In this document: positions 4,937 to 29,472 of the stretch, piece by piece | How positions within the stretch are numbered: the stretch's first letter is position 1 | How the letters are laid out: every line of letters starts with the position of its first letter | Assembly: GCA_044229975.1 (NCBI GenBank) | Contig: JBGARZ010000007.1 | Span: 320,001-384,000 of the forward strand | DNA: 64,000 nucleotides | DNA from: Polyangiales bacterium | GTDB lineage: Bacteria; Myxococcota_A; Polyangia; Polyangiales; Ga0077539 | Direction: 5' to 3' | Position numbers and translations under genes: made by a program | The notes under the pieces: model-generated | Told to the model about the DNA's origin: nothing | Database searches by the model: none | The model's input: the letters and a program-made list of their open reading frames with translations, nothing else

Positions 4937-5089
4937 GCGCGACTCTCGCCCTACGGCATCCTTCGGTGTCAATGGCCGAGCGATGGCGCCCCCTGGACGG
5001 CGTCCTTGACGCTCGGAGCGCGCGTGCGGTAACCGTGAAACGCGGGATCGGACACGTCACAAACCCCCCACTGCCTACCGGTGAGCGCG

Positions 5090-5635
5090 ATGAGCCGAGA
5101 CGACGGTGACGAGGTTCTGGAGGCGCTGGAGGTTCGCGGGACGCTGACCACCGAGACGGGCATCTCGGCGTCCATCACGCGGAGCCACGAGGCCGAGGTG
5201 CTGCGGGTCGTCGACGCCGACGGTCGCCTGCTCTTCGAACACCACACCGGCACCCGCGTCACGGTCATCGTGGCGCCCGAAGGCGACCTCGAACTACGGG
5301 CGCCGCACGGCAAGGTGAAGATCGTCGCGTCGGGCGGGGTCGAGGTCGACACACCCACGCTCGACGCGCGGGTCGGCGAGGCGCGCGTCGAGGGCCGCAC
5401 GCTGAGCACCACCTTCGACCGGGTGCGCTCGGTGGTGGGCGTGCTGGAGACGCGCGCGGGGCGGGTGCTGGAGCGGGCGAAGAGCGTCTACCGCGAGGTG
5501 GAGGGGCTCTCGCAGACGCGCGCCGGTCGGCTACGGCTGGTGGCCGAGACCACGGCGAGTCTGTTGGGGCAGCGCACCGTGGTGAAGGCGAAGGAAGACG
5601 TGAAGGTCAAGGGCGACAAGGTCTACCTGGCCTGA
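5090..5635 (+). CDS. DUF3540-like T6SS/CIS-associated protein
   Basis: C-terminal LERAKSVYREVEGLSQTRAGRLRLVA...VKVKGDKVYLA is typical of DUF3540; adjacent to DUF4150 and DUF2169 genes. Confidence 0.75.
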   Translation: MSRDDGDEVLEALEVRGTLTTETGISASITRSHEAEVLRVVDADGRLLFEHHTGTRVTVIVAPEGDLELRAPHGKVKIVASGGVEVDTPTLDARVGEARVEGRTLSTTFDRVRSVVGVLETRAGRVLERAKSVYREVEGLSQTRAGRLRLVAETTASLLGQRTVVKAKEDVKVKGDKVYLA

Positions 5636-6105: not shown

Positions 6106-8415
6106 TTGCGGATCATCAAAGAGACTCCCTTCGAGTTCGGCTTCCTCCCGTGGCAGGTCAGGCCCCCGGAGGGGGCGCTGATGGTGTTCGTGAAGGGCAC
6201 CTTCGATCTCGTTCATGACGGCGTCTGCACCGTCGCCGCCGAGCAGTCGCTCATCACTGGTCCGCTCCACTGGGATGACGACCCCAACCAGTCGCTGCGC
6301 CTCGACGGCGACTTCGCCGTGCTCAAGCCGCGCGGCGAGTGCCACTTCGTCGGTCACGCCTACGCCCCCGGCGGAGAGCCCGTCGGCAGCGTGCTCGTCG
6401 GCTTTCGCGTGGGCCAGGTGTCGCGCAACCTCGCCGTCTTCGGCGACCGCACCTTCGACGGCTATGGCGCCGTCACCGCTCCCGTCCCCTTCGAGCGCAT
6501 GCCCATCCGCTGGGAACTGGCGTTTGGCGGTCCGAGCTACGCGCGCAACCCGCTGGGTCGCGGCATCGCGGCCGTCGACACCGAGCAGGGCCGCCGGGTG
6601 GCGCTGCCCAACCTCGAAGACACCTCGGAGCCCATCACCAGCACGAGCGATCGGCCGCGGCCCGCGTGCTTCGGCCCCGTCCCACCGAGCTGGGTCGAGC
6701 GCACCCGCAAGGCGGGGACCTACGACCAGCGCTGGCTGAAGACCCGCTGGCCCTGGCTGCCCGACGACTTCGACTTCTCGTATTACCTGAGCGCTCCGTC
6801 GGCGCAGCACATCGAAGGGTACTGGCGCGGCGACGAGGCCGTCGGGTTGCAGCACCTCGCGGCGTCGCAGACGGTGATCCGATCGAAGCTGCCGGGCCTG
6901 CGCGGGCGCTGCTTCGCGGAGGTGCGGCGGGGCGGGGCGGTGGAGTTCGTGGAGGTTCCGCTGCGGCTCGACACCGTGACGCTCGATGGCGACAAGGAGC
7001 AGGTGCAGTGCGTCTGGCGCGGCCTGCTCGAAGGCATCTCGGAGAAGCACACCGAGGTCGAGACCTTCTTCTTCATCCATGAGTCCATCGATGTCGGGTA
7101 TCCGCTCGACCATTATCGACAATGGATGGAGCGCAAGCGCGCCGAGGCCGTCGCGCTCGACGACGACCTCGAAGCCGAAGCGCCGCCCGCGGAAGAACCC
7201 CTCGCGCTGCCACCGTCACCGCCGACGCCCACCGCGGCGCTGCTGCTCGCGGGTCTCGCGCTGTCCATGGAGGAGAACGGTCCGACGCCAGGGGTCGATG
7301 CGGCCGCCCACGCGGCGCAGGTCGCGCAGGTGAAGGCGCTCGCCGCGGCGCCGCCCGAACCGCCGATGCCGAAGCCTTCCGAGGTGCGTGCGGGCATGGA
7401 CGCGCAGGGCATCGAGGTCCCCGACGAGCTGCGTGAGCTGCCCGACGACGAGCCCGCGGAGCCCGAGACGGAAGAAGAGCCGCCGGGGCTCACGCGTGAA
7501 GACGTGCTGCGGTTTCGTGCGTACGGGCAGCCCCTCGCGGGCGCCGACCTCACCGGGGTCGACCTGTCCGAGCTCGACCTGTCGGGGCAGGACTTCACTG
7601 GCGCCGTGATGAGCCGCGCCGACCTGCGCAACTGCGTGCTGCGCGAGGCGGTGTTCACGGACGTGGTGCTCGACCACGCCGACCTCACGGGGGGTGATTT
7701 CGTGGGCGCCAACTTCGACGGCGCCGACCTCACGGGCGCCGCGGCGGTGCGCGTCAACGCGGAGGGCGCGAGCTTCGAGGGCGCGACGGCCGAGGGCTCG
7801 GCGTGGACGGGGTCGCGGTTCTTCCGGGCGAACCTGAAGGGCGCGGAGTTCGTGGGCTGCACGCTCAACGCGTGCGACTTCCGGGAGAGCACCTGCGACG
7901 AGGCGGACTTCAGCCGCTCGCGCGGAGAGCAGGCGCATTTCGAAGGGGCCTCGCTGGCGTCGGCGACGCTGGAGGCGGGGCAGTTCGCGCGGGCGGTCTT
8001 CGATGATGCGGTGCTGACCAACCTGCGCGCGGACGAGGGCGCGGACTTCACCGAGGCGTCGTTTCGGAGGGTGAAGGCGGCGGACGCGCACTTCGAGCAG
8101 GCGACGCTGCGCGGGGCGCAGATGGGCGAAGGGGACTTCGACAAGGCGGAGTTCGCGCGGGCCAACCTGGAGCGGGCGACGCTCACGGCGGCGTCGCTGA
8201 AGGGCGCGCGGTTCCACGAGGCCAACCTGACGGGCGCGGTGATGCTGAGGGCCAACGCGATGGAGGCGAGCTTCGAGGCGGCGCTGCTGGTGGAGACCGA
8301 CCTGCGCGGGGCCAACCTGACGAGCGCCCAGTTGTGGCGGGCCCGCACCGAGCGCGCGCAGATGGAGCTCGCGCTGCTGCACCGCACCGTCCTCGACCCC
8401 GCCATTCAGGGATGA
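6106..8415 (+). CDS. DUF2169 adaptor fused to pentapeptide repeats
   Basis: VKGTF, VFGDR, WELAFGG, NPLGRG, LPNLE, AGTYDQRWLKTRWPWLPDDFD, LRLDTV, VWRG; C-terminal A(D/N)LxxA repeats. Confidence 0.9.
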   Translation: MRIIKETPFEFGFLPWQVRPPEGALMVFVKGTFDLVHDGVCTVAAEQSLITGPLHWDDDPNQSLRLDGDFAVLKPRGECHFVGHAYAPGGEPVGSVLVGFRVGQVSRNLAVFGDRTFDGYGAVTAPVPFERMPIRWELAFGGPSYARNPLGRGIAAVDTEQGRRVALPNLEDTSEPITSTSDRPRPACFGPVPPSWVERTRKAGTYDQRWLKTRWPWLPDDFDFSYYLSAPSAQHIEGYWRGDEAVGLQHLAASQTVIRSKLPGLRGRCFAEVRRGGAVEFVEVPLRLDTVTLDGDKEQVQCVWRGLLEGISEKHTEVETFFFIHESIDVGYPLDHYRQWMERKRAEAVALDDDLEAEAPPAEEPLALPPSPPTPTAALLLAGLALSMEENGPTPGVDAAAHAAQVAQVKALAAAPPEPPMPKPSEVRAGMDAQGIEVPDELRELPDDEPAEPETEEEPPGLTREDVLRFRAYGQPLAGADLTGVDLSELDLSGQDFTGAVMSRADLRNCVLREAVFTDVVLDHADLTGGDFVGANFDGADLTGAAAVRVNAEGASFEGATAEGSAWTGSRFFRANLKGAEFVGCTLNACDFRESTCDEADFSRSRGEQAHFEGASLASATLEAGQFARAVFDDAVLTNLRADEGADFTEASFRRVKAADAHFEQATLRGAQMGEGDFDKAEFARANLERATLTAASLKGARFHEANLTGAVMLRANAMEASFEAALLVETDLRGANLTSAQLWRARTERAQMELALLHRTVLDPAIQG

Positions 8416-10283: not shown

Positions 10284-11450
10284 ATGACGGCGCAGCTCTT
10301 GTCGGTCGAGGTTCCGTTCAGCAGTACTGCCCTCAAGCTGGGGTCGTCGGTGGGCGGTCCCGGGGCGAGCCTCCAGACGGCGGGTGACGTGCTCCTCGAC
10401 TGCGTCGGGGTGATGGACATCCAATCGGCGGCCGCGTTTGTCGGGCAGACCAGCGCCGCGATGTCGATGCTGTCGGCGGCGATCCAGAAGATCCACTCGC
10501 AGGCGAAGGTCGAGCTCTTCGCGGGCGGTGGCATCTCGCCGAGCGCGTGCGGCCCGTCGGGCCCCGTGTCGGCGCCCGACCATGGTCCTCCGGGTGCTGC
10601 CTCGGAGAAGGTGACCGGCCTGGCGACGGCGGCGCTCTCGGCGACCAGCGCGAGCTACGGGTTGAAGGACGCGTTTTCGCCCAACCTCGCCATCGAAGCG
10701 GCGGGGAAGGGCGCCAAGGTCATCGCCGTCGCGGTTGGTGGTATCGCGGCGGTTGGTGGTGTGAGCGCGATCGGCAACGCGGCCTCCGGGTCGGGCTCCG
10801 GCGGAGCGGCGGCACCCGCAGGGGCGGGGGCAGGTGCAGGGGCGGGCGGAGCGAGCAGCTCGGGCGAAGGCGGATCGCACGGAGCGAGCAGCGGCAGTGG
10901 CGGGGGCGGCGGCGGTGGGACGCACATCGAGGAGCGCGCGTCGGCCAACATCAAGATGGTCGCGGGGAAGAAGATCTCGGGCATCGCTCCGGCCATGATC
11001 AGCTCGAAGACCCTGGGGAAGTTCGAGGTGAAGGCGCTGCTGGTGACCGACTTCACCACGGTGCTGTTCACCAACTTCGCGCTGGCGAAGTTCGAGGTGA
11101 AGGCGCTCGATGCCTTCAAGACGGTGTCGGGGAAATTCGAGGTCGAGGCCGACGTCGCGGTGGACATCAAGACCAAGGACTTCAAGGGCAAGGCCCCGGC
11201 CGTCACGATGGACGGCCACACCAAGGTCACGAAGGTGACCGACGTGAAGGGCAAGACGACGCTGAAGGACGACCTGGAGGTCGAGCGCAACGCCCTCATG
11301 AAGGACAAGCTCACCGTGAAGAAGAAGGTCGAGGTGAAGGGCACCCTCACGGTGAAGAAGAACACCAAGGTCACCTCGACGGCCACCATCGACGGCGACG
11401 TGAAGACCAAGACCGTGACCTTCAAGTCGCGAGTGACCTTCGGGCTCTAA
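10284..11450 (+). CDS. Stand-alone VgrG-C-terminus/spike-like beta-helix protein, paralog 1
   Basis: SD GGAGG; N-terminal beta-repeat ending ELFAGGG, Gly/Ala insert, HIEERA, C-terminal hexapeptide repeats (KLTVKK KVEVKG TLTVKK...TIDGDV). Confidence 0.6.
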   Translation: MTAQLLSVEVPFSSTALKLGSSVGGPGASLQTAGDVLLDCVGVMDIQSAAAFVGQTSAAMSMLSAAIQKIHSQAKVELFAGGGISPSACGPSGPVSAPDHGPPGAASEKVTGLATAALSATSASYGLKDAFSPNLAIEAAGKGAKVIAVAVGGIAAVGGVSAIGNAASGSGSGGAAAPAGAGAGAGAGGASSSGEGGSHGASSGSGGGGGGGTHIEERASANIKMVAGKKISGIAPAMISSKTLGKFEVKALLVTDFTTVLFTNFALAKFEVKALDAFKTVSGKFEVEADVAVDIKTKDFKGKAPAVTMDGHTKVTKVTDVKGKTTLKDDLEVERNALMKDKLTVKKKVEVKGTLTVKKNTKVTSTATIDGDVKTKTVTFKSRVTFGL

Positions 11451-11474
11451 GGGCCACCACCAGAGGGAGAGCCG

Positions 11475-12617
11475 ATGACCACGCCGCAGACCTTTGCTGT
11501 CACTGTTCCGCACGCGTCGAGCCAGCTCGCGCTGGGGCGCTGCGCCTGCCCCGACGGGGCCTCGCTCACCACCGTCGGGAGCGTGCTCGCCGACGCCGCC
11601 GGAACGCTCACCGCGCAGTGCGACGGGGCGTTTCTGGCGCAGACCAACGCGGCCATGTCGTGGCTCTCGACGGCCGGGACGCAGGTTCACACGGCCGCGG
11701 GGATCACCGTCTACGCGGGCGGCGGCGTGGCGCCGGGCGCGGCCGGGGGAGGGGTTCCGGCGAGCTCGCCGGGGTCGTCGAAGCCAGGGGCGGTGACCGA
11801 GAAGGTGGTCAACCTCACGCTCATCGGGGCCAACCTCGCGCGCAACGCCGTCGACGCGGCGGGCGCGGAGTCGGCGGTCGGGGTCGCGGCGCAGGTCCTC
11901 GACGCGGCGAAGAACGTGACCGCGGCCACCGCGGAGGTCGGCGCTGGGGGGGCGAAGCTCTCGGCGGCGACGGAGATGACGGGCGGCGCTCTCACCCTGG
12001 CGGAGGGCATGGCGAAGGGTGACCTCGCGGGCGTGGTCGTAGGGGCCGCGGGCATGGCGAGCGGCGCGTCGGGCGTGGCGAGCGGGTCGGACATCGAGCA
12101 GCGCGCGGTCAACGAGATCAAGATGGTGGCGGGCACCATGATCACGGGCTCGGCGACCGTGGGCTACGACTACAAGACGCTCAACAAGTTCGGCGTGACG
12201 GCGGGGGCGCTCACGAGCTTCACGACGACGGTGTGGGGAGCGTTCTGTCTGTTGAAATTCGAGGTGAAGGCCGGGGCCGCGGTGAAGGTGAAGACCAAGC
12301 TGGTGACGGTCAACGCGACGGTGTCGGCGACCATGGACGCGAAGACCGCGCTGAAGGTGATCAGCCCGAAGATCGAGTACGTGAGCAAGCTCGAGGTGAG
12401 CAAGACGCTGAAGGTCGTGAAGAAGACCAAGGTCAACAGCCTCGAAGTGAAGAAGAAGTCCGACCTCGACGGCACCCTCACGGTCGACAAGAACATGACC
12501 ATCGAGATGAACCTCGCGGTGAAGAAGAACCTCGACGCCAAGAAGGACGCCAAGGTGACGAAGGCCACCACGGCGAAGGGCGCGGCCACGGTGAGCGGCA
12601 AGACGAAGGTCGCCTGA
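11475..12617 (+). CDS. Stand-alone VgrG-C-terminus/spike-like beta-helix protein, paralog 2
   Basis: Same layout: VPHASSQLALG, TVYAGGG, DIEQRA, LDGTLTVDKNMTIE repeats. Confidence 0.6.
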   Translation: MTTPQTFAVTVPHASSQLALGRCACPDGASLTTVGSVLADAAGTLTAQCDGAFLAQTNAAMSWLSTAGTQVHTAAGITVYAGGGVAPGAAGGGVPASSPGSSKPGAVTEKVVNLTLIGANLARNAVDAAGAESAVGVAAQVLDAAKNVTAATAEVGAGGAKLSAATEMTGGALTLAEGMAKGDLAGVVVGAAGMASGASGVASGSDIEQRAVNEIKMVAGTMITGSATVGYDYKTLNKFGVTAGALTSFTTTVWGAFCLLKFEVKAGAAVKVKTKLVTVNATVSATMDAKTALKVISPKIEYVSKLEVSKTLKVVKKTKVNSLEVKKKSDLDGTLTVDKNMTIEMNLAVKKNLDAKKDAKVTKATTAKGAATVSGKTKVA

Positions 12618-12630
12618 GGGAGCCCCTGCG

Positions 12631-14199
12631 ATGCCCAACAACAACATCACGGGTGAGCTCAACAACACCGACCCGGTCTGCCTGCCCGGGGTGGACAACC
12701 AGGGCGCGACGGTCGAGTCGGACAGTGATCTCAGCGACGGGATGATGTGCGCGACCGGGTACGTGGACGTCGCGAAGTTTCCCGCGACCGCGCCCGGCAT
12801 CGATGAGCAGAAGAAGGCCGCCAACGCGCGGGCGGCGAAGTCTCCGAAGGGCGACGACGCGACGGCGCAGACGTACCGGGCAGAGGTTCCGTTTTCGGGG
12901 ACGGCGTTGCAGCTCGGGTCGGGCAGCTCGGCGGGCGGCGCGGGCGCGGCGCTCACCACCGGCGGCAACGTCTTCGTTGGCGCGACGGGCAAGATCACCA
13001 TGCAGTCGCTCGCGGCCTTCACGGGTCAGACGACGGCGACGATGGGGCTCTACGCGGGGGCCGGGGTGACGGCGCACTCGCAGGACAAGTTCGAGATCTA
13101 CGCGGGCGGCGGCGTGGCGCCGGGCAAGTGCGGGAGCGGCGGTCCGGCGGGGAGCGCGGGGACGACCAAGCCCGCCGAGGCGGCCGAGAAGTGGACCAAC
13201 GTCGGCTGCAACGCCCTCGGCGTGGTGAAGGGCCTCAACGACATGAGGAACGCCAACACCTGGTGGAAGGGCACCGCGTCGGACAAGGTGACGATGCTCA
13301 AGGGCGCCACGGACGCGTTGGGCAAGGGCACGCAGGCGGTCATGGGCGGCATCGGCACCGACAAGGACACGTTGAAGACCACGTCGAAGGTGGCCGACAC
13401 GACGTCGGGCGTGCTCAACGTGATCGGCGGCCTCACGAAGCTCAAGGAAGACCCCGTGGGGGCCGCGTCGAGCATCGTGTCCGGCATCGGCGGCGTCTCG
13501 GGCGCTTTCGGCGGGTCGCAGTTGATGAACTCCGACGGTCCCGTCGCGGGTAGCGATGGCGCGACGGACAGCGTCCCCGGCAACAAGGAGAAGAAGGCCA
13601 AGGCGAAGGCCGCGGGCGGCGGCGGCGGCGGTGGCGCTGGCGGCGGTGGTGGGCCGTTGGACATCGAGAAGCGCGCGGCGACGAAGATCCACCAGTGCTG
13701 CCCCTTGAAGATCTCGGGCAACGCCCCGGAGGGCATCGACTGGAAGGTGGGCGGCGCCTACCTGGTCAACGCCGTCGCGCTGGTGGACTTCCAGACGACC
13801 AACTGGGGTGCGTTTGCGGCGGCGATCTTCAAGGTGCGCGCGGTGGCGCTGGTCGACGTGAAGTGCCGACGCTTCGAGATGAAGGCGGTGGGCACTGGCA
13901 CCGTGAAGACCGTGTCGACGACCATCACGGCGTCGACGCTGAGCCTGCTCGACGGGGTGACGGACGTGACCGAGACGCTCACGGTGCTCAAGCACACGAC
14001 GCTGCACGACGAGCTGCACTGCGACAACGGCGGCAAGGCGAGCCTCGTGAAGGGCAACCTCACGGTGAAGAAGGACACCACCCACCAGGACGACGCCAAG
14101 ATCTACAAGACGTTCACGGTGAAGGACAGCATCACGATCAACGGTCGGTACGTGTCCAAGAGTCAGTTGAAGGCGGCCAGCGAGGGCAAGTTCGGCTGA
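12631..14199 (+). CDS. Stand-alone VgrG-C-terminus/spike-like beta-helix protein, paralog 3 (N-terminal extension)
   Basis: EVPFSGTALQLG, EIYAGGG, DIEKRA, VKGNLTVKKD repeats. Confidence 0.6.
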   Translation: MPNNNITGELNNTDPVCLPGVDNQGATVESDSDLSDGMMCATGYVDVAKFPATAPGIDEQKKAANARAAKSPKGDDATAQTYRAEVPFSGTALQLGSGSSAGGAGAALTTGGNVFVGATGKITMQSLAAFTGQTTATMGLYAGAGVTAHSQDKFEIYAGGGVAPGKCGSGGPAGSAGTTKPAEAAEKWTNVGCNALGVVKGLNDMRNANTWWKGTASDKVTMLKGATDALGKGTQAVMGGIGTDKDTLKTTSKVADTTSGVLNVIGGLTKLKEDPVGAASSIVSGIGGVSGAFGGSQLMNSDGPVAGSDGATDSVPGNKEKKAKAKAAGGGGGGGAGGGGGPLDIEKRAATKIHQCCPLKISGNAPEGIDWKVGGAYLVNAVALVDFQTTNWGAFAAAIFKVRAVALVDVKCRRFEMKAVGTGTVKTVSTTITASTLSLLDGVTDVTETLTVLKHTTLHDELHCDNGGKASLVKGNLTVKKDTTHQDDAKIYKTFTVKDSITINGRYVSKSQLKAASEGKFG

Positions 14200-14220
14200 C
14201 GCCCGACGACTGCAATTCCG

Positions 14221-16146
14221 ATGAGCGACATCACCACCGTCGAGGCCCTGGAGGCCGCCCTCGCGACCGGATCTCTCTCGGGCGCGCGCGTCCGCAATCT
14301 CACCGTGGAAGACCTCTCCTTCGAGGGCGTGACGCTCACCGCGGTGGCCTTCCTCGGGTGCGTCTTTCGGCGGCTGTCGCTGTCGCAGTCGTCGCTGACG
14401 GCGGTGGCCTTCCACGGCTGCCAGTGGGACGACTGCGCGTGGACGGAGCTCAGCGTCACGGGCGCCCTCTTCGCGGCGGGCGAGGGGGGCGAGGCGTCGT
14501 ACTTCGTGGGCACGCGCTTCGAGAGCTGGAGCGGCGAGAAGCTGACCTTCGAGACGTGCAGCTTCGAGGGTTCGACGCTGGCCGAGGCGGGGCTCAGCGA
14601 GGTGCGCTTCGCGGGCTGCGCGCTGCGCGACGTGGTGTGGCGCGAGGTGTCGCTGTCGGAGTTCTCGCTGGAGGCCGTGACCGTCGAGCGGGGGCAGTGG
14701 CTGGAGACGCGGCTCGAAGGCGGCGAGCTGGTGCGCTGCGAGCTGCACGCGCTCAGCGCGCCGGGTCTGGGCATCGAGGACACACGCTTCGATCACGTCG
14801 AGTGGGCGGGCGCCGACCTGACGGGCGCGAGGCTCGCGGGGCTCTCGTTTGCGGGCGTGGTGTCGATGCCCGCGACGCTTGACGGGGCGGTGCTCACGAG
14901 CGCCGACCTCACGGGCTGCGACCTGACGGGTGTCGCTCTCCGCGGGGCTGATCTGTCGGAGGCGGTGCTGGCGCGCGCGGTCTTCGACACGGCCGACCTG
15001 ACGGGCGCCGACCTCACGAGCGCGATGGCGGCGGGCGCGTCGTTCCAGGCGGCGATCGTTCGAGGGGCGAACTTCTCCAGCGCGGTGCTCCAGGGCGTCG
15101 ACCTGCGGGCGCGCGACGCGGAGTCGGTGGTGTTCTCGGGGGCCGACCTGCGGGCGAGCGACGTGCGCTACGCCGAGTTCAACGGGTGCCTCTTCGACGG
15201 GTCGCTGTGGGCCGAGGCGCGCACCGGGCGGGCGTCGTTTCGAGGGTGCAGCTTCGAGGGTGCGACGCTGGAGGGCGCCGTCTTCGACGGGTGCGCGCTG
15301 ACGGACTCGTCGCTCGCCGCGGCGCGCGCGGCCGGGGCGTCGTTGCGCGGGTGCGACCTGAGCGAGGTCGACGCGAGCGGAGCGCAGCTCGCGGGTGCGT
15401 TGCTCGCGGGTGCGCGATTGCATGACGCGGTGCTGACGGACGCCGACCTCACGGGGGCCGACCTCACGGGGGCGCAGCTCTATCGCAGCGACCTCGCGGG
15501 GGCGCGGCTCGCGGGCGCGGTGCTCCTGGGCGCCGACCTCACGCGGGTGGACGCGCGCGGGCTGCACCTGGGCGACTGTCGCATCGACCGCGCGACGGTG
15601 TGGGAGGGGGCCGACCTGCGGGGCGCGGCGGCGGTGGGGATGGACTTCCGCGGCGCCAACCTGCGCGACCTCGACGGGCGCGGCGGTGACTTCACCGGGT
15701 GCCGCTTCGACGAGGCGGTGGCGGAGGGCGCGACGCTGCACGAAGCGAAGCTCACGGGCTCGTCGTGGGTGAAGACGAAGGCGCGCGGGGCGGAGTTCGA
15801 CGGGGCCAACCTCGACGCGAGCGACCTGCGCGGGGCCGACCTGCGCGCGGCGACGATGGTGGGCGCGAGCGCGCTGCGGGCGCTGTTCACGAAGGCCGAC
15901 CTCGACCGCGCGCGGCTGGTGAAGTGCGACCTGCGCGAGGCCAACCTGGCGCTGTGCACGATGCGGTACTGCGACCTCTCGCACGCGAAGCTCGACCGGG
16001 CGGACTGCACCCACGCCGACCTCACGGGGTCGCTGCTGCATCGCACGACGGAGCTGGAGACGAAGTGGTTCGACGCGACGCTGGACGAGGTCGGGCGCAC
16101 CGACCCGAAGCTCGCCGCGGGCGAGGACTTCGTCCCGACGCGGTAG
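14221..16146 (+). CDS. Pentapeptide repeat protein (T6SS-accessory type)
   Basis: Continuous ADLTGA-type repeats ending TDPKLAAGEDF. Confidence 0.9.
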   Translation: MSDITTVEALEAALATGSLSGARVRNLTVEDLSFEGVTLTAVAFLGCVFRRLSLSQSSLTAVAFHGCQWDDCAWTELSVTGALFAAGEGGEASYFVGTRFESWSGEKLTFETCSFEGSTLAEAGLSEVRFAGCALRDVVWREVSLSEFSLEAVTVERGQWLETRLEGGELVRCELHALSAPGLGIEDTRFDHVEWAGADLTGARLAGLSFAGVVSMPATLDGAVLTSADLTGCDLTGVALRGADLSEAVLARAVFDTADLTGADLTSAMAAGASFQAAIVRGANFSSAVLQGVDLRARDAESVVFSGADLRASDVRYAEFNGCLFDGSLWAEARTGRASFRGCSFEGATLEGAVFDGCALTDSSLAAARAAGASLRGCDLSEVDASGAQLAGALLAGARLHDAVLTDADLTGADLTGAQLYRSDLAGARLAGAVLLGADLTRVDARGLHLGDCRIDRATVWEGADLRGAAAVGMDFRGANLRDLDGRGGDFTGCRFDEAVAEGATLHEAKLTGSSWVKTKARGAEFDGANLDASDLRGADLRAATMVGASALRALFTKADLDRARLVKCDLREANLALCTMRYCDLSHAKLDRADCTHADLTGSLLHRTTELETKWFDATLDEVGRTDPKLAAGEDFVPTR

Positions 16147-16167
16147 GCGGTCGAGCGGCCGGCGCGC

Positions 16168-17208
16168 TCAGCTCAACGTCGCGCCCGCGCGGTACGTCGA
16201 CGGCGACCGGCCGGTCCAGCGGCGGAACGCTCGCGTGAAGGCGGTCGACTGACCAAACCCGAGGTCGTGGGAGATCTGCTTCAGCGAGCGCGTGCGGTCG
16301 CCGATCCAGAGCAGCGCGAGCTCACGTCGCGCCTCATCCAACAGGTCCTGAAACGACGTCCCCGCGTCGCCCAGCGCGCGCTGGAGCGATCGCACGCTGA
16401 GGGCCATCCCAGAGGCGACGCTCGTCACCGACGGCGACGCGCCCTCCTTGAGCACCCGCTTGAGCTCGGCGCGCACGCGCTCTTCGATCTGGGGCCGCGA
16501 CGCGACCCGCTCCTTCCGGTCGACGAGATGGGCCTCCATCAGGTTGGCGAGCGCGGGGTTGGCGCTGCGCAACGGAGCGGTGAGGTACGACTCGTCGAAG
16601 GTCACGCAGTCCTCCGCGGCGGAGAACGACGGCACCGTGCCCAGCACGCGCGCGTGCTCCGCGAGGTCCGCCGGGGCCGAGTGGCGGAAGCACACACTCC
16701 GCGCAACAAACGGCCGATCGATGAGCGTCCGCGCCCGCAGAAACCAGACCGCGACCGCGAACTCGCAGAAGTGACGCGGCACCCGCGACGTCGAGTGAAA
16801 CACCACCCACACCCGCGCCTCGCCCTGCTCCACCGCCAGCCGGATCTCCGCGCCGTCGTGTTGGAGCCGCAGGTGACGCATCATGCGCTCCAGCCCGTCG
16901 CGCATCGTCGGCGCGCTCGTCACCGCGAAGTCGTACGCGTCGAACATGGCGTCCTGCATCGCCTCGGCGGCGTGCAGTCCGAAGTGCGGGTCCCCCAGGT
17001 GTTCGGCGACGCGGTCCCACGCGCGATAGGTGAGCTCCGCCGATACGCGCGCCTCGGGGTCGGCCAGCGTCTCCAGGTCGACCCCGATCAGCGCCGCGGC
17101 CTCGGTGAGTTCGAGGCCCGCGTTGGCGGCCACCAGGACGCAGCCACGCAAGGCGTTGACGCAGACGTTGGGCGCGTACGGGGTCGAGCGGGTCGAGGGG
17201 TTGGACAT
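16168..17208 (-). CDS. AraC family transcriptional regulator
   Basis: C-terminal SVRSLQRAL...GTSFQDLLD...LGFGQSTAFTRAFRRWTGRSPSTYR; DPHFGLH in the N-terminal domain. Start inferred. Confidence 0.92.
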   Translation of the reverse strand: MSNPSTRSTPYAPNVCVNALRGCVLVAANAGLELTEAAALIGVDLETLADPEARVSAELTYRAWDRVAEHLGDPHFGLHAAEAMQDAMFDAYDFAVTSAPTMRDGLERMMRHLRLQHDGAEIRLAVEQGEARVWVVFHSTSRVPRHFCEFAVAVWFLRARTLIDRPFVARSVCFRHSAPADLAEHARVLGTVPSFSAAEDCVTFDESYLTAPLRSANPALANLMEAHLVDRKERVASRPQIEERVRAELKRVLKEGASPSVTSVASGMALSVRSLQRALGDAGTSFQDLLDEARRELALLWIGDRTRSLKQISHDLGFGQSTAFTRAFRRWTGRSPSTYRAGATLS

Positions 17209-17403
17209 CGTCGGTAGCCTCGCGAGGTGCGGTGCCTCTGGCGCGTGGGGGTAGGTCGTGGGCGCCCCAGGGTAACGCCATCTCAGCGATGGCGCGGTAG
17301 CTGTGTCCGCCAGTCCTGGGACGGGCACTTCCCCTGCGTGATGGGCCAGGCGGGGGTGAGACGCCGCGTCGCAAACACGGAACAACCGACAAGGAGATCC
17401 CGC

Positions 17404-19719
17404 ATGACCAGCGTCTTGCAACACGGCTCGACAAGCGCCAACCCGCCTTCCGTCTTCATTCGACTTCTGGCGATTGCCTCAATGATCACGGCCGCCGCTG
17501 GGTGCAGTGACCCGGTGAGCGTCACCCCGACCGATGCAGGCACCGACGTCCCCGTCGCTCCGACCGACGCGCCCGTCGCCGATGCGCCCACCGACCAACC
17601 GCCTCCTGCCGACGCGCCATCCGCTGATGCGCCCATCTCTCCATTGAACTGTGGCGGTGTCGAGGTGCTCGACCTCAACGCGCTGGGCACCACGACCGAC
17701 GGCGTCCTCCGTTACACGGGCATGTCGCCCATGATGCAGGCGGCCGCAATGGTCCCGATGTGCACGGCGATGTTCAACGTCCCGCGCATCCTCCGGTACA
17801 CGGCGCCCGCCGCCGGTCGCGTGGCCTTCAGCACCGACAACATGGGGACCACCTTCGACACCACCCTGGCCGTGCTCACCGGCTGCCCGGGGCCGACGGC
17901 CACCTCCCTCGGGTGCGTCGACGACAACGGCGTCACCACGCGCCTCTCGTCCATCGTCCGTACCGAGCGTGCCCTCACCGCAGGCGAGAGCGTCTACGTC
18001 CTCGTCGGCGCCTTCGCCACGGGAGGCACCTTCGCCCTCTCCGTCACCGCGGTCAGTGAGGTCGCCGTCGGCGCGGCCTGCGACACCGATCGGGTGTGCG
18101 TGACCGGTGCGACCTGCATCACGCCCGCGGGCTCCACCGCCCGCTGCGTCGCCAACGGAACCTCCGGTGGCGCCTGCCGACCCGCGAGCGCCGGTGGCAC
18201 CCGCTGCGACGCGCCCCTGTCGTGCTCGGCCGCCGAGCGCTGCATCCCCACCATCGCCGCGGGCGCCGAGTGCGACGCCGCGGGCGCCGCCAACGTCTGC
18301 GTCGCCGGCACCTCGTGTCAGACCGCCGGCACCGCCCGCACCTGCGTGGCAGACGGCGCGCTCAACGGCCGCTGCCGCGCGACCGACAGCTCTTGCGACG
18401 CGGGCCTCGGGTGCGCGCGCGCCAGCAACCTCTGCCTCCCCGTGGTCGCGATCGGAGCCGCGTGCGACCTCGCGAGCAGCACCTCGGTCTGCATCACCGG
18501 ATCGTCGTGCCAGGGCTCGCCGGGTCTCTACCGCTGCGTGGCGGACGGCGTGCTGGGCGGGCAGTGCCGCGCGTCCATGGGCTGCGACACCGGCCTCGGT
18601 TGCAACGCCACCAACTACTGCGTCACGGGCATCGCCGCGGGTGCCACCTGCGACCCCTCGTCGTCCTCGTCGGTGTGCGTCTCCGGGAGCATCTGCGTGG
18701 GCTCGCCTGGCATGTATCGCTGCCAGCCTGACGGCGCCGTCGGTGGCCGCTGCCGCGCGGCGGTGCCCCGATGCGACACGGGCCTCGGCTGCGGAGCCGA
18801 CCGCTGCCTCCCGACCGTGGCCGCGGGCGCGGCGTGTGATCCGGCCCGCATGGCCAACGTGTGCGCCGACACGACGAGCTGCATCGCCGCGACGAGCGGC
18901 GCTGCGACCTGCGTGGCCGACGGCATCGCGGGCGGTCGTTGCCGCACGACGGCGATGCCCTGCGACACGGGCCTCGGCTGCGGCGCCGGCCAGCGCTGCA
19001 TCACGGCGGTCGCCATCGGCGCGACCTGCGACGCGACGGGTGTGACCAACGCCTGCGTGAGCCCGGCGCGATGCGTGGTGATGGGAACGTCCAAGGCGCG
19101 CACCTGCCAGCTCCCGAGCTACGTCGAGAGCGAGATCGCGTCGCCGACCTTCGTCGATGCGTGCACCGCGGACGCCACGCGCGTCACGTTCACGTCAATG
19201 GATGACGCCATCTCTGCGATGGTTCCGATCGGCTTCACGCTGCGCGCGTACGGCGCCGACTACACCGCGATGCTGGTCTCCACCAACGGGATGGTGGTGC
19301 TCGGCGATGCGGCGCTGCCGATGCCGCCGCCCTTCAGCACCGGGGGCGATCTCTTCCCCTGGGTCGGGGCACCGCGGCCGGTGTTCGCGCCCTTCTGGGA
19401 CGACCTCGTGCTCCGCACCGCTGGGAGCGTCTGCGTGCGCACCCTGGGCGCGGCGCCGTCGCGAACGACGGTGGTCGAGTGGTTCGACGCATCCCTCTAC
19501 CTCGGTGAGACGGCGCACCTGACCTTCGAGCTCGTCCTGCGCGAGGGCTCCAACCAGGTCGACTTCCTCTACCAGACGCTCACCCCTGGGATGGCGCCCG
19601 CCGCCCGACTGGAGGGCGGCTCCGCGGGCATCGGCGTGCAGGGCGCCATGGGCCTCGACGCCACCCGCCACGCGGCCGCCGTGAGCACCGCCCGCGGCAT
19701 CCGCTTCGCTCCGCGCTGA
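17404..19719 (+). CDS. Cys-rich repeat lipoprotein with C-terminal nidogen-like domain
   Basis: SD AGGAGA; lipobox AAGC; repeated CVADG..GGRCR..CDTGLGC units; C-terminal VSTNG...FAPFWDDL...TFELVL. Confidence 0.75.
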   Translation: MTSVLQHGSTSANPPSVFIRLLAIASMITAAAGCSDPVSVTPTDAGTDVPVAPTDAPVADAPTDQPPPADAPSADAPISPLNCGGVEVLDLNALGTTTDGVLRYTGMSPMMQAAAMVPMCTAMFNVPRILRYTAPAAGRVAFSTDNMGTTFDTTLAVLTGCPGPTATSLGCVDDNGVTTRLSSIVRTERALTAGESVYVLVGAFATGGTFALSVTAVSEVAVGAACDTDRVCVTGATCITPAGSTARCVANGTSGGACRPASAGGTRCDAPLSCSAAERCIPTIAAGAECDAAGAANVCVAGTSCQTAGTARTCVADGALNGRCRATDSSCDAGLGCARASNLCLPVVAIGAACDLASSTSVCITGSSCQGSPGLYRCVADGVLGGQCRASMGCDTGLGCNATNYCVTGIAAGATCDPSSSSSVCVSGSICVGSPGMYRCQPDGAVGGRCRAAVPRCDTGLGCGADRCLPTVAAGAACDPARMANVCADTTSCIAATSGAATCVADGIAGGRCRTTAMPCDTGLGCGAGQRCITAVAIGATCDATGVTNACVSPARCVVMGTSKARTCQLPSYVESEIASPTFVDACTADATRVTFTSMDDAISAMVPIGFTLRAYGADYTAMLVSTNGMVVLGDAALPMPPPFSTGGDLFPWVGAPRPVFAPFWDDLVLRTAGSVCVRTLGAAPSRTTVVEWFDASLYLGETAHLTFELVLREGSNQVDFLYQTLTPGMAPAARLEGGSAGIGVQGAMGLDATRHAAAVSTARGIRFAPR

Positions 19720-19739
19720 CACCCCCCCCACCGGCCAAA

Positions 19740-19767
19740 CGCCGCGGGCTGCGACAGCTCCGCGGCG
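19740..19767. terminator. GC-rich hairpin between convergent genes
   Basis: CGCCGCGG-GCTG-CGA-CAGC-T-CCGCGGCG; no clear U-tract. Confidence 0.45.
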
Positions 19768-19768
19768 G

Positions 19769-21241
19769 TCAGCTCTGGTCGTCGAAGGTCACGGTGATGC
19801 CGTGGCGCGTGCGGATCTGGCTCTGCGTGGGGTTGCCCGAGTTGACCGGCGAGGCCGTCTCGAAGTTGGGCACCGACGACATGATGAGCGGTCGGTCGGG
19901 GTCGCCGTTGACGTGGATGAGCGCGACCTCGGTGCCGATGTGCAGCGGAAACTGCACGCCGTAGCCGCTGCCCGAGGCGGGCTGCGCCATGCGAATCCAG
20001 CGCGACGCCTTGCCGCCGGCCTTGCCCGCGAGGTCCCACGGGAGGATGACCTTGTAGCGGCCGTGCTCGTCGACGGGCGTCGCGCGCACGCCATCATCGG
20101 GCGCGTCGATCTTGCCGTGGATCACGCCCGCGATGCGGGGCACCGGTGTCATCCGCACCGGGCGCCACGGCACCGCGGTGGGGACGGCGGTGAACTCGTT
20201 GCGGTACGCCTGCGAGCCGCCGCTCGTGCCGATGCCCGCCTGCTGCACCGAGTGGCGGATGTCGGTGACGAAGTACTCCTGCTCCATCGCGTCGAAGTAG
20301 TGCTGCTCGACGCTGAACTTGTGCCCCGGGTGCAGGCCCCGCAGCGCCGTGACGCCCGCGTAGGTCTCGCGGTGGGCGAACAGCTCCTGCGAGCGCAGCT
20401 TGGCGATGCGCGTGCCGCCCGCGTGATCCTTGAAGTGCTCGCCGTAGTAGACGTGCTCGCCGGTGCCGGTGGTGTCGACGTCCTCCTTGGCGACGAGCTC
20501 GGTGGACGGCGTGCGGTAGTTGTAGTCGCGCACCGTGACCTTCGTGGTGACCGTGCGACGCGTTCGCGAGAGGGCCGTGATGCGCTGCTCGCCGCCCGCC
20601 GTGCCGCCGCGCGGGTCGTAGGTGAGCACCTCGTAGCCGTCGAGGTTCTGGAAGTTGTTGTTGCCGTCCGCGAAGACCAGCTTCGACCCTTCGTCGCCGT
20701 GCTCGAAGAAGTAGAAGATCCCTTCGTACTCCATCACCCGCGACAGAAACTGGAAGTCCGTCTCCTCGTACTGGACCTTGTATTCGTAGGGCTTGTACGT
20801 CTTCGAGAGCCGCAGCTCGAAGTCGTCGCCGTCGGCAAAACCAGCCTCCGTCAGCACGTCCTTGATGACCTGCGGGGCTGAGAGTTCTTGATAGACCCAC
20901 GAGCCCGCGGTGAGGGTCGTGTCGAAGAACTTCGGCACCAGGCGCAGGTGGTAGAGCACGGGTGACGGCTCGTTCATCGAGAGCATCTCGACCTCGCGGA
21001 TGACCCCGTGGATCTTGTTCTCCTCCTGGTCGCCGAAGGCGATGTACGCGCTCTTCACGAGCAGCTCTTCGACCGTGGCGAAGGACAGCGGCGTGCCGGT
21101 GGAGGTCTCCACGATGAGGTCGAACGCGTAGAGCTGCGAGAGCCCCTCGTGTCCGTCCATCTGCCGAACGTAGAGGTCCGGCGCCGACTCCGCCGTGGTG
21201 CGAAACACGACCGTGTAGTTCGAGTGGTCCTGGTCAGGCAT
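19769..21241 (-). CDS. vgrG: VgrG/TssI (gp27-like hub + gp5 OB-fold), lacking the C-terminal spike
   Basis: GHEGLSQLY, VQYEETDFQFLSRVMEYEGIFYFFEH, VRDYNYRTP, YRNEF, VDEHGRYKV, SRWIRMAQP, FPLHIGTEV, NGDPDRPLI; stops at GITVTFDDQS. Confidence 0.92.
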   Translation of the reverse strand: MPDQDHSNYTVVFRTTAESAPDLYVRQMDGHEGLSQLYAFDLIVETSTGTPLSFATVEELLVKSAYIAFGDQEENKIHGVIREVEMLSMNEPSPVLYHLRLVPKFFDTTLTAGSWVYQELSAPQVIKDVLTEAGFADGDDFELRLSKTYKPYEYKVQYEETDFQFLSRVMEYEGIFYFFEHGDEGSKLVFADGNNNFQNLDGYEVLTYDPRGGTAGGEQRITALSRTRRTVTTKVTVRDYNYRTPSTELVAKEDVDTTGTGEHVYYGEHFKDHAGGTRIAKLRSQELFAHRETYAGVTALRGLHPGHKFSVEQHYFDAMEQEYFVTDIRHSVQQAGIGTSGGSQAYRNEFTAVPTAVPWRPVRMTPVPRIAGVIHGKIDAPDDGVRATPVDEHGRYKVILPWDLAGKAGGKASRWIRMAQPASGSGYGVQFPLHIGTEVALIHVNGDPDRPLIMSSVPNFETASPVNSGNPTQSQIRTRHGITVTFDDQS

Positions 21242-27135: not shown

Positions 27136-29472
27136 GTGACCCTCGGCCTCCCGCCAACCCCCGAAGACGAGTACCTCTGGGGCTGGGACGCCACCCCCGC
27201 CATCGTCTCCGTCTGGGCCGATCACGACGGCCGCGCCCACGTCTGGCGTCGCACGCCCACCGGCATCTCCTACGAGCCCGCGCGCTTCCGCCCGTGGGCG
27301 CTGCTCGCCTCGCTCGACGACATCGTCTCCCCGTCACTCCCGCGCGGCGTCACCTGGCGCGAGCTCCGCGGCGACGGCCCGCTGCGCTTCCTCGTCGAGG
27401 CCGATGCCTCCCGCGACCTCACCGCGGCCATCCTCCGCAACGCCTCGCGCCGCACCGGACGCACCCTCCAGCGCCTCTCCGAGCTCGATGACGGCACCGT
27501 GCTCTCGCTCCCACCCGAGGAGCAGTACCTCGTCGCCACCGGCCGAACCCACTTCCGCGACCTCGCCTTCGACGACCTCCACCGCCTCGCCTTCGACCTC
27601 GAAACCACCGGCCTCGACCCCGCCCACCATCGCGTCTTCCTCGTCGCCATCCGCGACAACCGCGGCCTCGCCACGACCCTCGAAGTCGCCGACGCCTCCG
27701 ACGCCGCCGAAGCACAGCTCCTCCGCGACCTCGTCGCGCTCATCAAGACCCGCGACCCCGACGTCATCGAGAACCACAACCTCCACGGCTTCGACCTCCC
27801 CTTCATCGCGACCCGCGCTCGCGCGCTCGGCGTCCCGCTCACCTTCGGTCGCTTGCCCAGCGTTCGACTCGCGCCTCGCCCCGGACCGCGCGGCAAGACC
27901 CGCTACACCATCCCGGGCAGGGAGCTCATCGACACGCTCGACGCCGTTCGCCGCCACGACTTCTCGGCGCGCGACCTCCCTGGTCACGGCCTGAAAGCCG
28001 TCGCGAAGCACTTCGGGCTCGCGGGTCCTGATCGCGAGTACGTTGCTGGATCGAAGGTCTACGCGACCTGGCTCAGCGACCCCGCGCGGGTGCGCCGCTA
28101 CGCCCTCGACGACACCGCCGAGGCCATGGGACTCGCGCGCGTTCTCGGTGGTGCGGCCTTCGCGTTGGCCCGCATGGCGCCGCGTCGCTACGAGCGCCTC
28201 GCAGACGCCGGCCCCGCCACGGGTGTGCTCGACCCGCTCCTGGTGAGGGCGTACGTGCGCGCCGACACCGCGCTCCCCGCGCGCTCCGAGGGCGACGGAA
28301 CCGTCCACACCGGCGCCGCCCTCTACCTCTTCGCAGCCGGCGTGGCGAAGCGCATCGTGAAGGCCGACGTCGCGAGCCTGTACCCCTCGCTCATGCGGCA
28401 GTACCGCATCGGACCGCGCGGCGACGGCCTCGGCGCGCTGCTCGCACTGGTCGATCGCCTCGTCGAGCAACGACTCGCGGCGAAGGCGCGCGGTCGCGCG
28501 GCGCCGCACGGCTCCAACGAGCGGTACACCGACGAGGCGCTGTCGGCGGCGATGAAGATCCTCGTCAACTCGGCCTACGGCTATCTCGGCGCGGTCGGGC
28601 TCACGCGCTTCGCGGACGTGCACGCGGCCAACGAGGTCACGCGGCGCGGTCGCGAGGTGCTCGATCGCGTTTGCGCGGCGCTGGCCGAGCGCGGCGTGAC
28701 GCTGCTGGAGGGGGACACCGACGGCGTGTACTTCGCCGTTCCCGAGGAGTGGAGCGAGGAGGACGAGCGGCGCGTGGTGCGCGAGGTCGGAGAACTGCTA
28801 CCGCCGCTGGTGCGGTTGGAGTTCGACGGGCGCTACGCCGCGATGCTCTCGCACGAGCCCAAGAACTACGCGCTGCTCGGCTACGACGGAAAGCTGCTGC
28901 TGCGCGGGGTGGCCTTCCGATCGAGCCGCTCGGAGGCGTATGGGGAGCGCTTCCTGCGCGAGGCGGCGGGCTGTCTGCTGGCGGGCGACGTGAAGGGCGC
29001 GCGGGCCGCGTACCGGGCGACGGTGACGGCGGTGCGGGCGCGGGCGCTGCCGACGTCGGACGTGGCGATGCGGGTGCGGCTGACGAAGGAGACGGCAGCG
29101 TACGTGGCGACGCGCCATCGCCGAAAGGAGCTGCCCTACGAGGCGGTGCTGACCAACGGGCGCACGACGTGGGCGGTGGGCGAGCGGGTGCGGATCTACC
29201 GGGCGACGGGTGGTCGCGCGGGGCTGCTGACGGAGGCGGAGGAGGGCGGCGACGAGGGCGCGGTCGACGCGAGGGACTACGACGTGGAGCACTACGTGCG
29301 GGTGCTGCGCGACGGGTACGCGACGCGGCTGGCGCGGGCGTTTTCGCCGGAGGGGTTCAGGGCGCTCTTCGACGACCCCGACCAGCCGTCGCTGTTTGCG
29401 CGGCTCGACGAGCTGGTGCAGCCGCGGCTGACGGTGTGTCGCGCGCCGCCGCGGTTGCGCGAGGGGGAGTAG
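27136..29472 (+). CDS. polB: Family B DNA polymerase with 3'-5' exonuclease domain
   Basis: ExoI FDLETTG, ExoII NHNLHGFDLPF, ExoIII YALDD; polymerase motifs DVASLYPS, KILVNSAYG, GDTDG, KNY. Confidence 0.9.
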   Translation: MTLGLPPTPEDEYLWGWDATPAIVSVWADHDGRAHVWRRTPTGISYEPARFRPWALLASLDDIVSPSLPRGVTWRELRGDGPLRFLVEADASRDLTAAILRNASRRTGRTLQRLSELDDGTVLSLPPEEQYLVATGRTHFRDLAFDDLHRLAFDLETTGLDPAHHRVFLVAIRDNRGLATTLEVADASDAAEAQLLRDLVALIKTRDPDVIENHNLHGFDLPFIATRARALGVPLTFGRLPSVRLAPRPGPRGKTRYTIPGRELIDTLDAVRRHDFSARDLPGHGLKAVAKHFGLAGPDREYVAGSKVYATWLSDPARVRRYALDDTAEAMGLARVLGGAAFALARMAPRRYERLADAGPATGVLDPLLVRAYVRADTALPARSEGDGTVHTGAALYLFAAGVAKRIVKADVASLYPSLMRQYRIGPRGDGLGALLALVDRLVEQRLAAKARGRAAPHGSNERYTDEALSAAMKILVNSAYGYLGAVGLTRFADVHAANEVTRRGREVLDRVCAALAERGVTLLEGDTDGVYFAVPEEWSEEDERRVVREVGELLPPLVRLEFDGRYAAMLSHEPKNYALLGYDGKLLLRGVAFRSSRSEAYGERFLREAAGCLLAGDVKGARAAYRATVTAVRARALPTSDVAMRVRLTKETAAYVATRHRRKELPYEAVLTNGRTTWAVGERVRIYRATGGRAGLLTEAEEGGDEGAVDARDYDVEHYVRVLRDGYATRLARAFSPEGFRALFDDPDQPSLFARLDELVQPRLTVCRAPPRLREGE

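Follow-up and report, generated by a model that had tools for sequence, protein, structure and literature searches.

A Needle-Less VgrG Hub and Three Separately Encoded Putative Needle Paralogs in a Type VI Secretion Locus of the Polyangiales

Introduction

The locus considered here raises a simple question: where is the needle of a VgrG spike protein whose gene ends just where the needle would be expected to begin? The gene lies in a 64,000-nucleotide stretch of a Polyangiales genome (assembly GCA_044229975.1, contig JBGARZ010000007.1, positions 320,001 to 384,000 of the forward strand), referred to below as the window. A sequence-only reading of this DNA proposed that the gene encodes a type VI secretion system (T6SS) hub without its needle, and that the needle is supplied in trans by three tandem paralogs, here called A, B, and C, either as a heterotrimer or as interchangeable needles.

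The vgrG Gene Ends Before Its Needle

The window vgrG product passes the T6SS model TIGR03361 (339 bits, with a cut-off of 186) and aligns with Pseudomonas aeruginosa VgrG1 over residues 20–480. Pfam places Phage_GPD at residues 34–337 (E 2e-71), followed by the oligonucleotide/oligosaccharide-binding fold (OB-fold) of Phage_base_V (E 6e-8). The chain ends in GITVTFDDQS and the codon TGA, confirming the clean stop after a gp27-like hub and OB-fold that was first described. No needle-like open reading frame lies behind this stop in any frame, and no beta-prism needle is found in the same chain.

This ending is shared widely among relatives. Among the best 25 hub loci in 41 genomes, 24 terminate within a few residues of one another, at the same D-D-x motif, and the remaining one is cut by a contig end. 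In the complete set of fetched loci there are 77 distinct hubs, 70 of which terminate between -1 and +4 residues from the window stop, a proportion that is not the frequency among all VgrGs since loci were selected for their resemblance to this hub or the needle genes. Of the other seven, four have 23–56 extra residues and three are fused to a needle. Variant stubs are seen at L174, L214, L217, and the second locus of L030, where 23–56 extra C-terminal residues overlap or abut the needle gene. The window hub is 85–89% identical to those of its congeners over its full length. In a quick tree of 59 hubs, 42 split rows (four of them duplicates) form one clade with 99% support in the Shimodaira–Hasegawa-like approximate likelihood ratio test; the sister of this clade consists of three split hubs and one fused hub, and full-length VgrGs fall outside. 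By these comparisons, the vgrG split is old and conserved.

The host genome has 15 VgrG hubs, 13 of full length and two short, and a T6SS sheath gene on contig C39 (PF05943, E 4e-133), the only T6SS core gene that was profiled. Joining of hub and needle by read-through or frameshift was considered and rejected, since vgrG lies on the opposite strand from the A-B-C triplet in the window and, in G020 and G021, the needle genes and the closest hub are on different contigs.

Three Paralogs That Continue the VgrG Beta-Prism in Sequence

A, B, and C are 32–35% identical in pairwise comparison, all three carry the three motifs named in the sequence-only reading, and no further copy was found in the genome by tblastn at E<=1e-3. 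Their alignment and a monomer model give a common layout of a beta-module, a Pro-rich linker, a helical insert, and a long run of short strands, with C-terminal ends made of hexapeptide Lys/Val/Thr repeats. The start motif Q-x-x-x-V-x-V-P...LG is also found in differing genes beside other short hubs. The GC content at third codon positions (GC3) is 0.90–0.95, like that of the neighboring genes.

The evidence that these genes encode needle sequence comes from VgrGs in which hub and needle are still fused. A needle-module profile of 93 positions matches the full-length VgrG of contig C13, which was found independently of the profile, from residue 505, two residues past the end of the hub alignment; on the VgrGs of contig C32 it matches at residues 490 and 510 (domain E 0.002–0.006 including C13, among 15 sequences). 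Fused VgrGs were found in the same order, and the junctions of three of them run across the split point. Two of these junctions read ...INIDDVAGSE followed by RIKLTVPFANTILQLG (L211) and ...NFDDTEGS followed by HRLKISIPHSDTTFQLG (L150), and the window counterpart is ...TFDDQS and a stop, with MTAQLLSVEVPFSSTALKLG supplied from a separate gene. When seven fused tails, of which three were found via the module itself and four independently, were aligned with the module by hhalign, they matched from the first column with 93% probability (E 3e-7); the fused sequence L150 taken singly gave a weak match to A1 (probability 10%, E 0.003). With A alone as query no longer fused homologs were found, and the fused forms surfaced only with the module profile. 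The hub ends at D-D-x-S/G, and each paralog opens with the strand that comes next in fused relatives. Because A, B, and C begin where the fused relatives continue, the paralogs carry needle sequence, and it is well supported by these alignments that they are the sequence continuation of the VgrG beta-prism. The proposal that they represent the needle part of VgrG is thus borne out at the level of sequence, in register with the fused proteins.

General family searches are less specific. A, B, and C have no Pfam match to DUF2345 (PF10106), Gp5_C, or gpV at E<=0.01, no NCBIfam family, and no Phage_base_V (OB-fold) match; a sub-cutoff Bactofilin match on A is the sole Pfam signal, and PHROG matches are weak and to unnamed, structural, or fibre families. 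Among sequence matches of the module profile in the PDB, four of seven are Gp5/VgrG-type chains, all weak (best E 0.004), and in the ESM Atlas paralog B leads to Gp5_C/Gp5_trimer_C clusters at 0.82–0.83, again weak leads only. In a search of 1.84 billion representatives, 345 clusters (50% identity) match the module at E<=0.001, some by generic repeats. None of the 142 newly listed representative matches carries a hub; 54 of these matches have LG or IG at the C-terminus, as TvpC-type tips do. DUF2345 matches 19 of 32 scanned representatives, several of which are likely unrelated repeat proteins, and three stand-alone relatives score over the cut-off. The likeness to DUF2345 and gpV needles first noted by eye therefore holds for stand-alone relatives in the case of DUF2345, and neither family is matched by A, B, or C in Pfam.

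Some stand-alone needle genes are more elaborate. N-terminal Ig-like (ASH/HYDIN-type) domains stand ahead of the docking module at L155:8257-10122 and in proteins P0090 and P0108, and others reach 1000–1400 amino acids through large inserts; such proteins are possibly decorated needles.

Distribution of Split Hubs and Needle Genes

Split hubs accompanied by stand-alone needle genes are common in the order. The needle module is present in 47 of its 331 genomes, spread over six families, and was not found outside the order among 401 phylum-wide genomes. In a class-wide sample, the one out-of-order match is a repeat in a full-length VgrG. In families f1, f11, f13, f17, f22, and f24, needle genes have short hubs and Tvp genes as neighbors; in the fetched loci a short hub and Tvp genes are nearly always nearby, in varying order and strand. 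The co-occurrence of needle genes with truncated hubs, on which the proposal of a split spike depended, is therefore seen across several families of the order. The genome of the window has a second split locus (L090, contig C20:218828-228859), in which a short vgrG ending in YTNDDA is followed directly by one needle gene of 1106 amino acids with a long Ala/Gly/Gln repeat insert.

One Needle Gene or Three

In 101 fetched stretches, 103 needle clusters were called as 78 single, 21 triple, and 4 double; among clusters with their flanks in view the numbers are 60, 15, and 3. Three of the 78 singles are fused VgrGs, and a fourth is a triplet cut by its contig. Two of the four doubles belong to triplets, one truncated in the view and one damaged, leaving L089 and L169 as true doublets. 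Split systems usually have a single needle gene, so the triplet is derived. The earlier emphasis on exactly three paralogs is thus partly upheld: the triplet recurs (21 of 103 clusters, against two true doublets), but most split loci have a single gene.

Where triplets occur, their gene order is fixed. The A-B-C order is kept in 14 triplets, from 10 genomes and four metagenome contigs, three of which nearly duplicate G004, and in the needle tree A, B, and C each form a clade (support 99, 100, and 100) apart from a slowly evolving single-gene form, with stems longer than the single-gene stem. Purifying selection acts on all three and is strongest in the docking module (dN 0.11–0.19 in the N-terminal module against dS 0.60–0.66, from five genomes and with dS underestimated at this GC content). 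The distal prism is 174–178 residues long in 22 of 23 triplet sequences, and the insert varies from 43 to 186 residues. The inserts contain no consistent transmembrane segment (maximum KD19 0.8–2.1). Seven further triplets are found in three genomes of family f22. One of these genomes has four triplets, whose same-position copies are 28–41% identical and in which all three genes are kept. A single origin of all triplets was rejected by the approximately unbiased test (p=0.00012; 30 rows, 141 columns, long branches present), and by this phylogenetic evidence triplets arose at least twice.

A comparable arrangement of full-length genes is present in the same genome. On contig C32 (1096564-1103595, minus strand), three tandem full-length vgrG genes, 36–50% identical, are followed by DUF2169/pentapeptide, DUF3540, and DUF4150 genes. 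Contig C13 holds a single-vgrG version of this Tvp locus, a parallel one-to-three transition.

A Proposed Needle Docked in Trans

We assign a probability of roughly 0.6 to the reading that A, B, and C form a 1:1:1 heterotrimeric needle docked in trans on the needle-less hub. In the proposed mechanism, vgrG was split at the beta-turn just past the OB-fold, and A, B, and C would contribute one chain each to a needle whose predicted docking site is the two-strand stub left on the hub trimer. The needle chains would pair by beta-sheet with the last hub strands, such that the proximal beta-prism prolongs the hub sheets, and the N-terminal extension of C, which the closest single-gene form has in all its chains, may act as a clamp at the joint. 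The variable Gly/Ala-rich helical insert would loop out, possibly as a cargo-binding or membrane-active part. Beyond it, the flush end of a distal prism of about 175 residues would receive the DUF4150 tip, presumably loaded by the Class III Tvp chaperones, with TvpC as placeholder together with TvpAB and TvpB, as in Serratia (PMC13373197). The spike would then be fired by the T6SS of the genome, which is encoded on another contig. The ancestral split form was likely a homotrimer from one gene, and triplication may have allowed the chains to specialize, plausibly for an asymmetric TvpAB/TvpB/PAAR wrap or for differing cargo.

A number of observations weigh against this reading. One gene suffices at most loci, and two true doublets exist. 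In the hub tree, G018 and G023, at loci with one needle gene, have hubs that group within those linked to triplets, so that three different chains are not demanded by the hub. One member is broken in three draft-genome triplets (C of G021, by a stop codon, and one each in L162 and L167). Counted by origins, triplets (two or three) are about as frequent as doublets (two), the loci not being independent. A volume test, biased by its shared reference, gave no size complementarity between A, B, and C. For Aeromonas, the requirement for a VgrG heterotrimer was traced to effectors and not to the VgrG chains (PMC8668125). Finally, AlphaFold monomer models reached a predicted local distance difference test (pLDDT) score of 44 with 25 sequences and 67 with 96 sequences (paralog B), and the latter model is a single-chain solenoid. 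Foldseek searches with it (PDB and viral structures), a check suggested alongside the sequence-only reading, returned no VgrG needle or anything else at E<=0.001, the R2 pyocin spike appearing only at E 4–6, and the top VIA-align matches were adhesin beta-helices (EtpA, Z 11.7), a bactofilin (Z 8.3), and generic helices rather than VgrG.

An alternative that retains the split and the trans-docking is that A, B, and C are swappable needles. Each would form homotrimers, or the three would mix at random, and the resulting needles, bearing differing cargo, would compete for a single hub. Single-gene loci (78 of the 103 clusters) must use homotrimers, the doublets L089 and L169 exist, and the inserts differ among the paralogs, all of which would fit. 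The hub and needle trees disagree, and equal prism length is also expected where each homotrimer fits the same Tvp/PAAR set. However, the number and order of the genes are frozen across genera and across loci only 28–41% alike, and among the fetched loci no intact A-B-C-type locus is cut to two genes. No effector or immunity genes stand between the paralogs, the stems of A, B, and C exceed the single-gene stem in length, and the full N-terminal extension of the closest single-gene form is kept only by C. From this comparative evidence we infer that the heterotrimer is favored, and exchange of whole needles at one hub appears unlikely, though it is the best of the alternatives.

It is considerably less probable that the paralogs are not the fired needle at all, serving instead as TvpC-like placeholders, cargo, or single-chain beta-solenoids. 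In that case the stub hub would either receive its cap directly or require a full-length VgrG in order to function. The resemblance of the monomer model to single-chain beta-helices and the weak Bactofilin match point in this direction, as do the 13 full-length VgrGs of the genome and the VgrG mimics known in Tvp systems (PMC13373197). On the other side, the locus already has its TvpC, and the paralogs lack an OB-fold and start exactly at the hub stop. Fused hub-needle forms exist, and such a gene is almost always close to a short hub. In addition, monomer predictors tend to fold intertwined trimers as single chains.

A last alternative, a vgrG stop due to nonsense mutation or misassembly together with a triplet that is decaying duplication debris, would be compatible with a draft genome of 39 contigs for which no sequencing run contains more than 0.14 of the words of the window. 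It is effectively refuted by conservation. The stop is common to congeners and relatives (70 of 77 hubs), the hub is 85–89% identical to its congeners along its whole length, A, B, and C are under purifying selection, and their GC3 is like that of their neighbors. These features exclude an artefact or strain-specific lesion, the outcome that would have undone the sequence-only reading.

Locus Neighborhood

The genes surrounding the triplet are listed in Table 1. Pfam matches confirm the DUF3540, DUF4150, DUF2169-pentapeptide, and pentapeptide genes first assigned around it, and the Class III Tvp gene set of TvpAB, TvpB, TvpC, and DUF4150 is complete; by gene content, the locus is a Class III Tvp accessory cluster. 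The plus-strand run from DUF3540 through DUF4150, DUF2169, the 582-residue gene, and A-B-C to the pentapeptide gene is an apparent operon. A search for the tube protein PF06841 of extracellular contractile injection systems gave no match, and the controls likewise had none.

Table 1. Features of the split-spike locus (positions in the window)
Positions	Strand	Feature	Evidence or remark
5081..5635	+	DUF3540 (TvpC-like)	PF12059 E 7.5e-18; role from PMC13373197
5658..6065	+	DUF4150 PAAR-like (Tox-PAAR-like) tip protein without toxin extension	PF13665 E 9.7e-30
6106..8415	+	DUF2169 + pentapeptide repeats (TvpAB-like)	PF09937 E 1e-90, PF00805
8473..10221	+	582-aa conserved gene, no Pfam/NCBIfam match	Directly upstream of needle genes in closest relatives
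10284..11450	+	Putative needle paralog A, 388 aa: beta-module, helical insert, 174-aa distal prism	
11475..12617	+	Putative needle paralog B, 380 aa, 174-aa distal prism	
12631..14199	+	Putative needle paralog C, 522 aa, ~80-aa N-terminal extension as in single-copy relatives, 178-aa distal prism	
14221..16146	+	Stand-alone pentapeptide-repeat protein (TvpB-like)	PF00805 E 2e-72
19769..21241	-	vgrG without needle: gp27-like hub + OB-fold + two strands, stop after FDDQS	490 aa
21326..22816	+	Gene divergent from vgrG; candidate cargo	Adjoins several short and fused vgrG relatives

The product of the 582-residue gene has Cys-x-Cys/Cys-x-x-Cys motifs that are kept in many split loci, and a distant paralog is encoded on contig C38. 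Relatives of the gene divergent from vgrG (49–80% identity) are also found beside more distant short hubs and two fused VgrGs; its product has no Pfam or NCBIfam match and no named match in the ESM Atlas. Between the TvpB-like gene and vgrG (16168-19719) lie an AraC regulator gene and a Cys-rich lipoprotein-like gene, the latter with a GC3 of 0.65 compared with about 0.9 in its neighbors. As both are missing here in congeners, they are likely a recent insertion. Further downstream (27136-29472), the window has a family B DNA polymerase gene with an exonuclease domain.

Relation to Known Spikes

The closest accessory system is the Class III Tvp of Serratia marcescens (VgrG1-TvpAB-TvpB-TvpC-Paar1), in which DUF4150 is loaded onto a long VgrG tip via the TvpC placeholder (PMC13373197); this class corresponds to DUF2169 synteny type C (PMC11883445). 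The same four accessory genes are present in both cases, and in the Tvp systems they are tied to a very long beta-prism (PMC13373197). There, however, VgrG is one chain, usually of 700–800 residues (PMC13373197), whereas here a 490-residue hub is accompanied by three separate needle paralogs. The words split, truncated, and heterotrimer are absent from the main text of PMC13373197, whose supplements with Myxococcota sequences could mention such loci.

The PdpA-VgrG spike of the Francisella T6SS-ii is the nearest precedent for the split itself. A short VgrG that is reported to lack both hub and OB-fold sits on a separate hub in a 3+3 complex that constitutes the spike (PMC5924787, PMC10653695), so that hub and beta-helix needle are likewise on separate genes, and the absence of the OB-fold from the short VgrG places the cut at a level similar to that seen here. 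The Francisella needle differs in being 164 residues long, encoded by a single gene, and homotrimeric, in a divergent T6SS subtype (same sources), while the window has a canonical TIGR03361 hub with close relatives that are fused, and needles of 320–1400 residues with inserts. The Francisella model NF041249 matches neither the hub nor A, B, or C. Given a canonical hub with fused relatives and no NF041249 match, the locus is not a member of the PdpA-VgrG type, and the fission here is likely separate from that of Francisella.

Mixed spikes are known as well. The heterotrimeric VgrGs of Vibrio cholerae and Aeromonas dhakensis have three paralogous chains per spike (PMC8668125). Those chains are full-length VgrGs, whereas in the proposed arrangement the hub would be a homotrimer and mixing would be confined to the needle, whose chains come from one operon. 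The DUF2345-type VgrG of Escherichia coli (PDB 6sjl) has strands, a helical insert, and a second prism past its OB-fold, with weak profile matches, but it is a single chain, and the window paralogs lack a DUF2345 match and end in hexapeptide Lys/Val/Thr repeats. In phages, the pairs T4 gp27 and gp5 and P2 gpD and gpV are likewise two-gene spikes (PMC5924787), although they are split before the OB-fold; here, the OB-fold remains on the hub, and A, B, and C have no gpV-type OB-fold.

No description of a split VgrG in myxobacteria was found in the literature searched, which excluded most subscription papers, and the available portions of PMC10210955 and PMC8651086 contain nothing on a split hub and needle arrangement. 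A split spike is thus apparently undescribed for the canonical T6SS, its precedents being the Francisella PdpA-VgrG and the mixed VgrG trimers.

Conclusion

A broader interpretation, to which we give somewhat less than even odds, is that of an order-wide plug-in spike. The needle-less hub would serve as a socket, the needles, each encoded apart from it, would be exchanged from locus to locus, and on at least two occasions the needle gene would have been triplicated to an obligate 1:1:1 heterotrimer, in parallel with the full-length VgrG triplet in the same genome, such that one shot presents three chains and their inserts.

If the proposed trans-docked spike is correct, the canonical T6SS spike need not be one chain, and hub and needle would be separate, recombinable modules joined by beta-sheet extension. 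It would represent a second known route to a split design after Francisella and, in the literature searched, the first found in the canonical VgrG lineage. A gene-encoded 1:1:1 needle would also offer a clean system for asking whether VgrG chains form heterotrimers of necessity and in a set order or only incidentally, and the repeated one-to-three transitions would be a natural experiment in the passage from homo-oligomer to hetero-oligomer. A large unannotated family, the 345 clusters that match the module, would be explained, and the 490-residue vgrG genes of these bacteria would not be pseudogenes.

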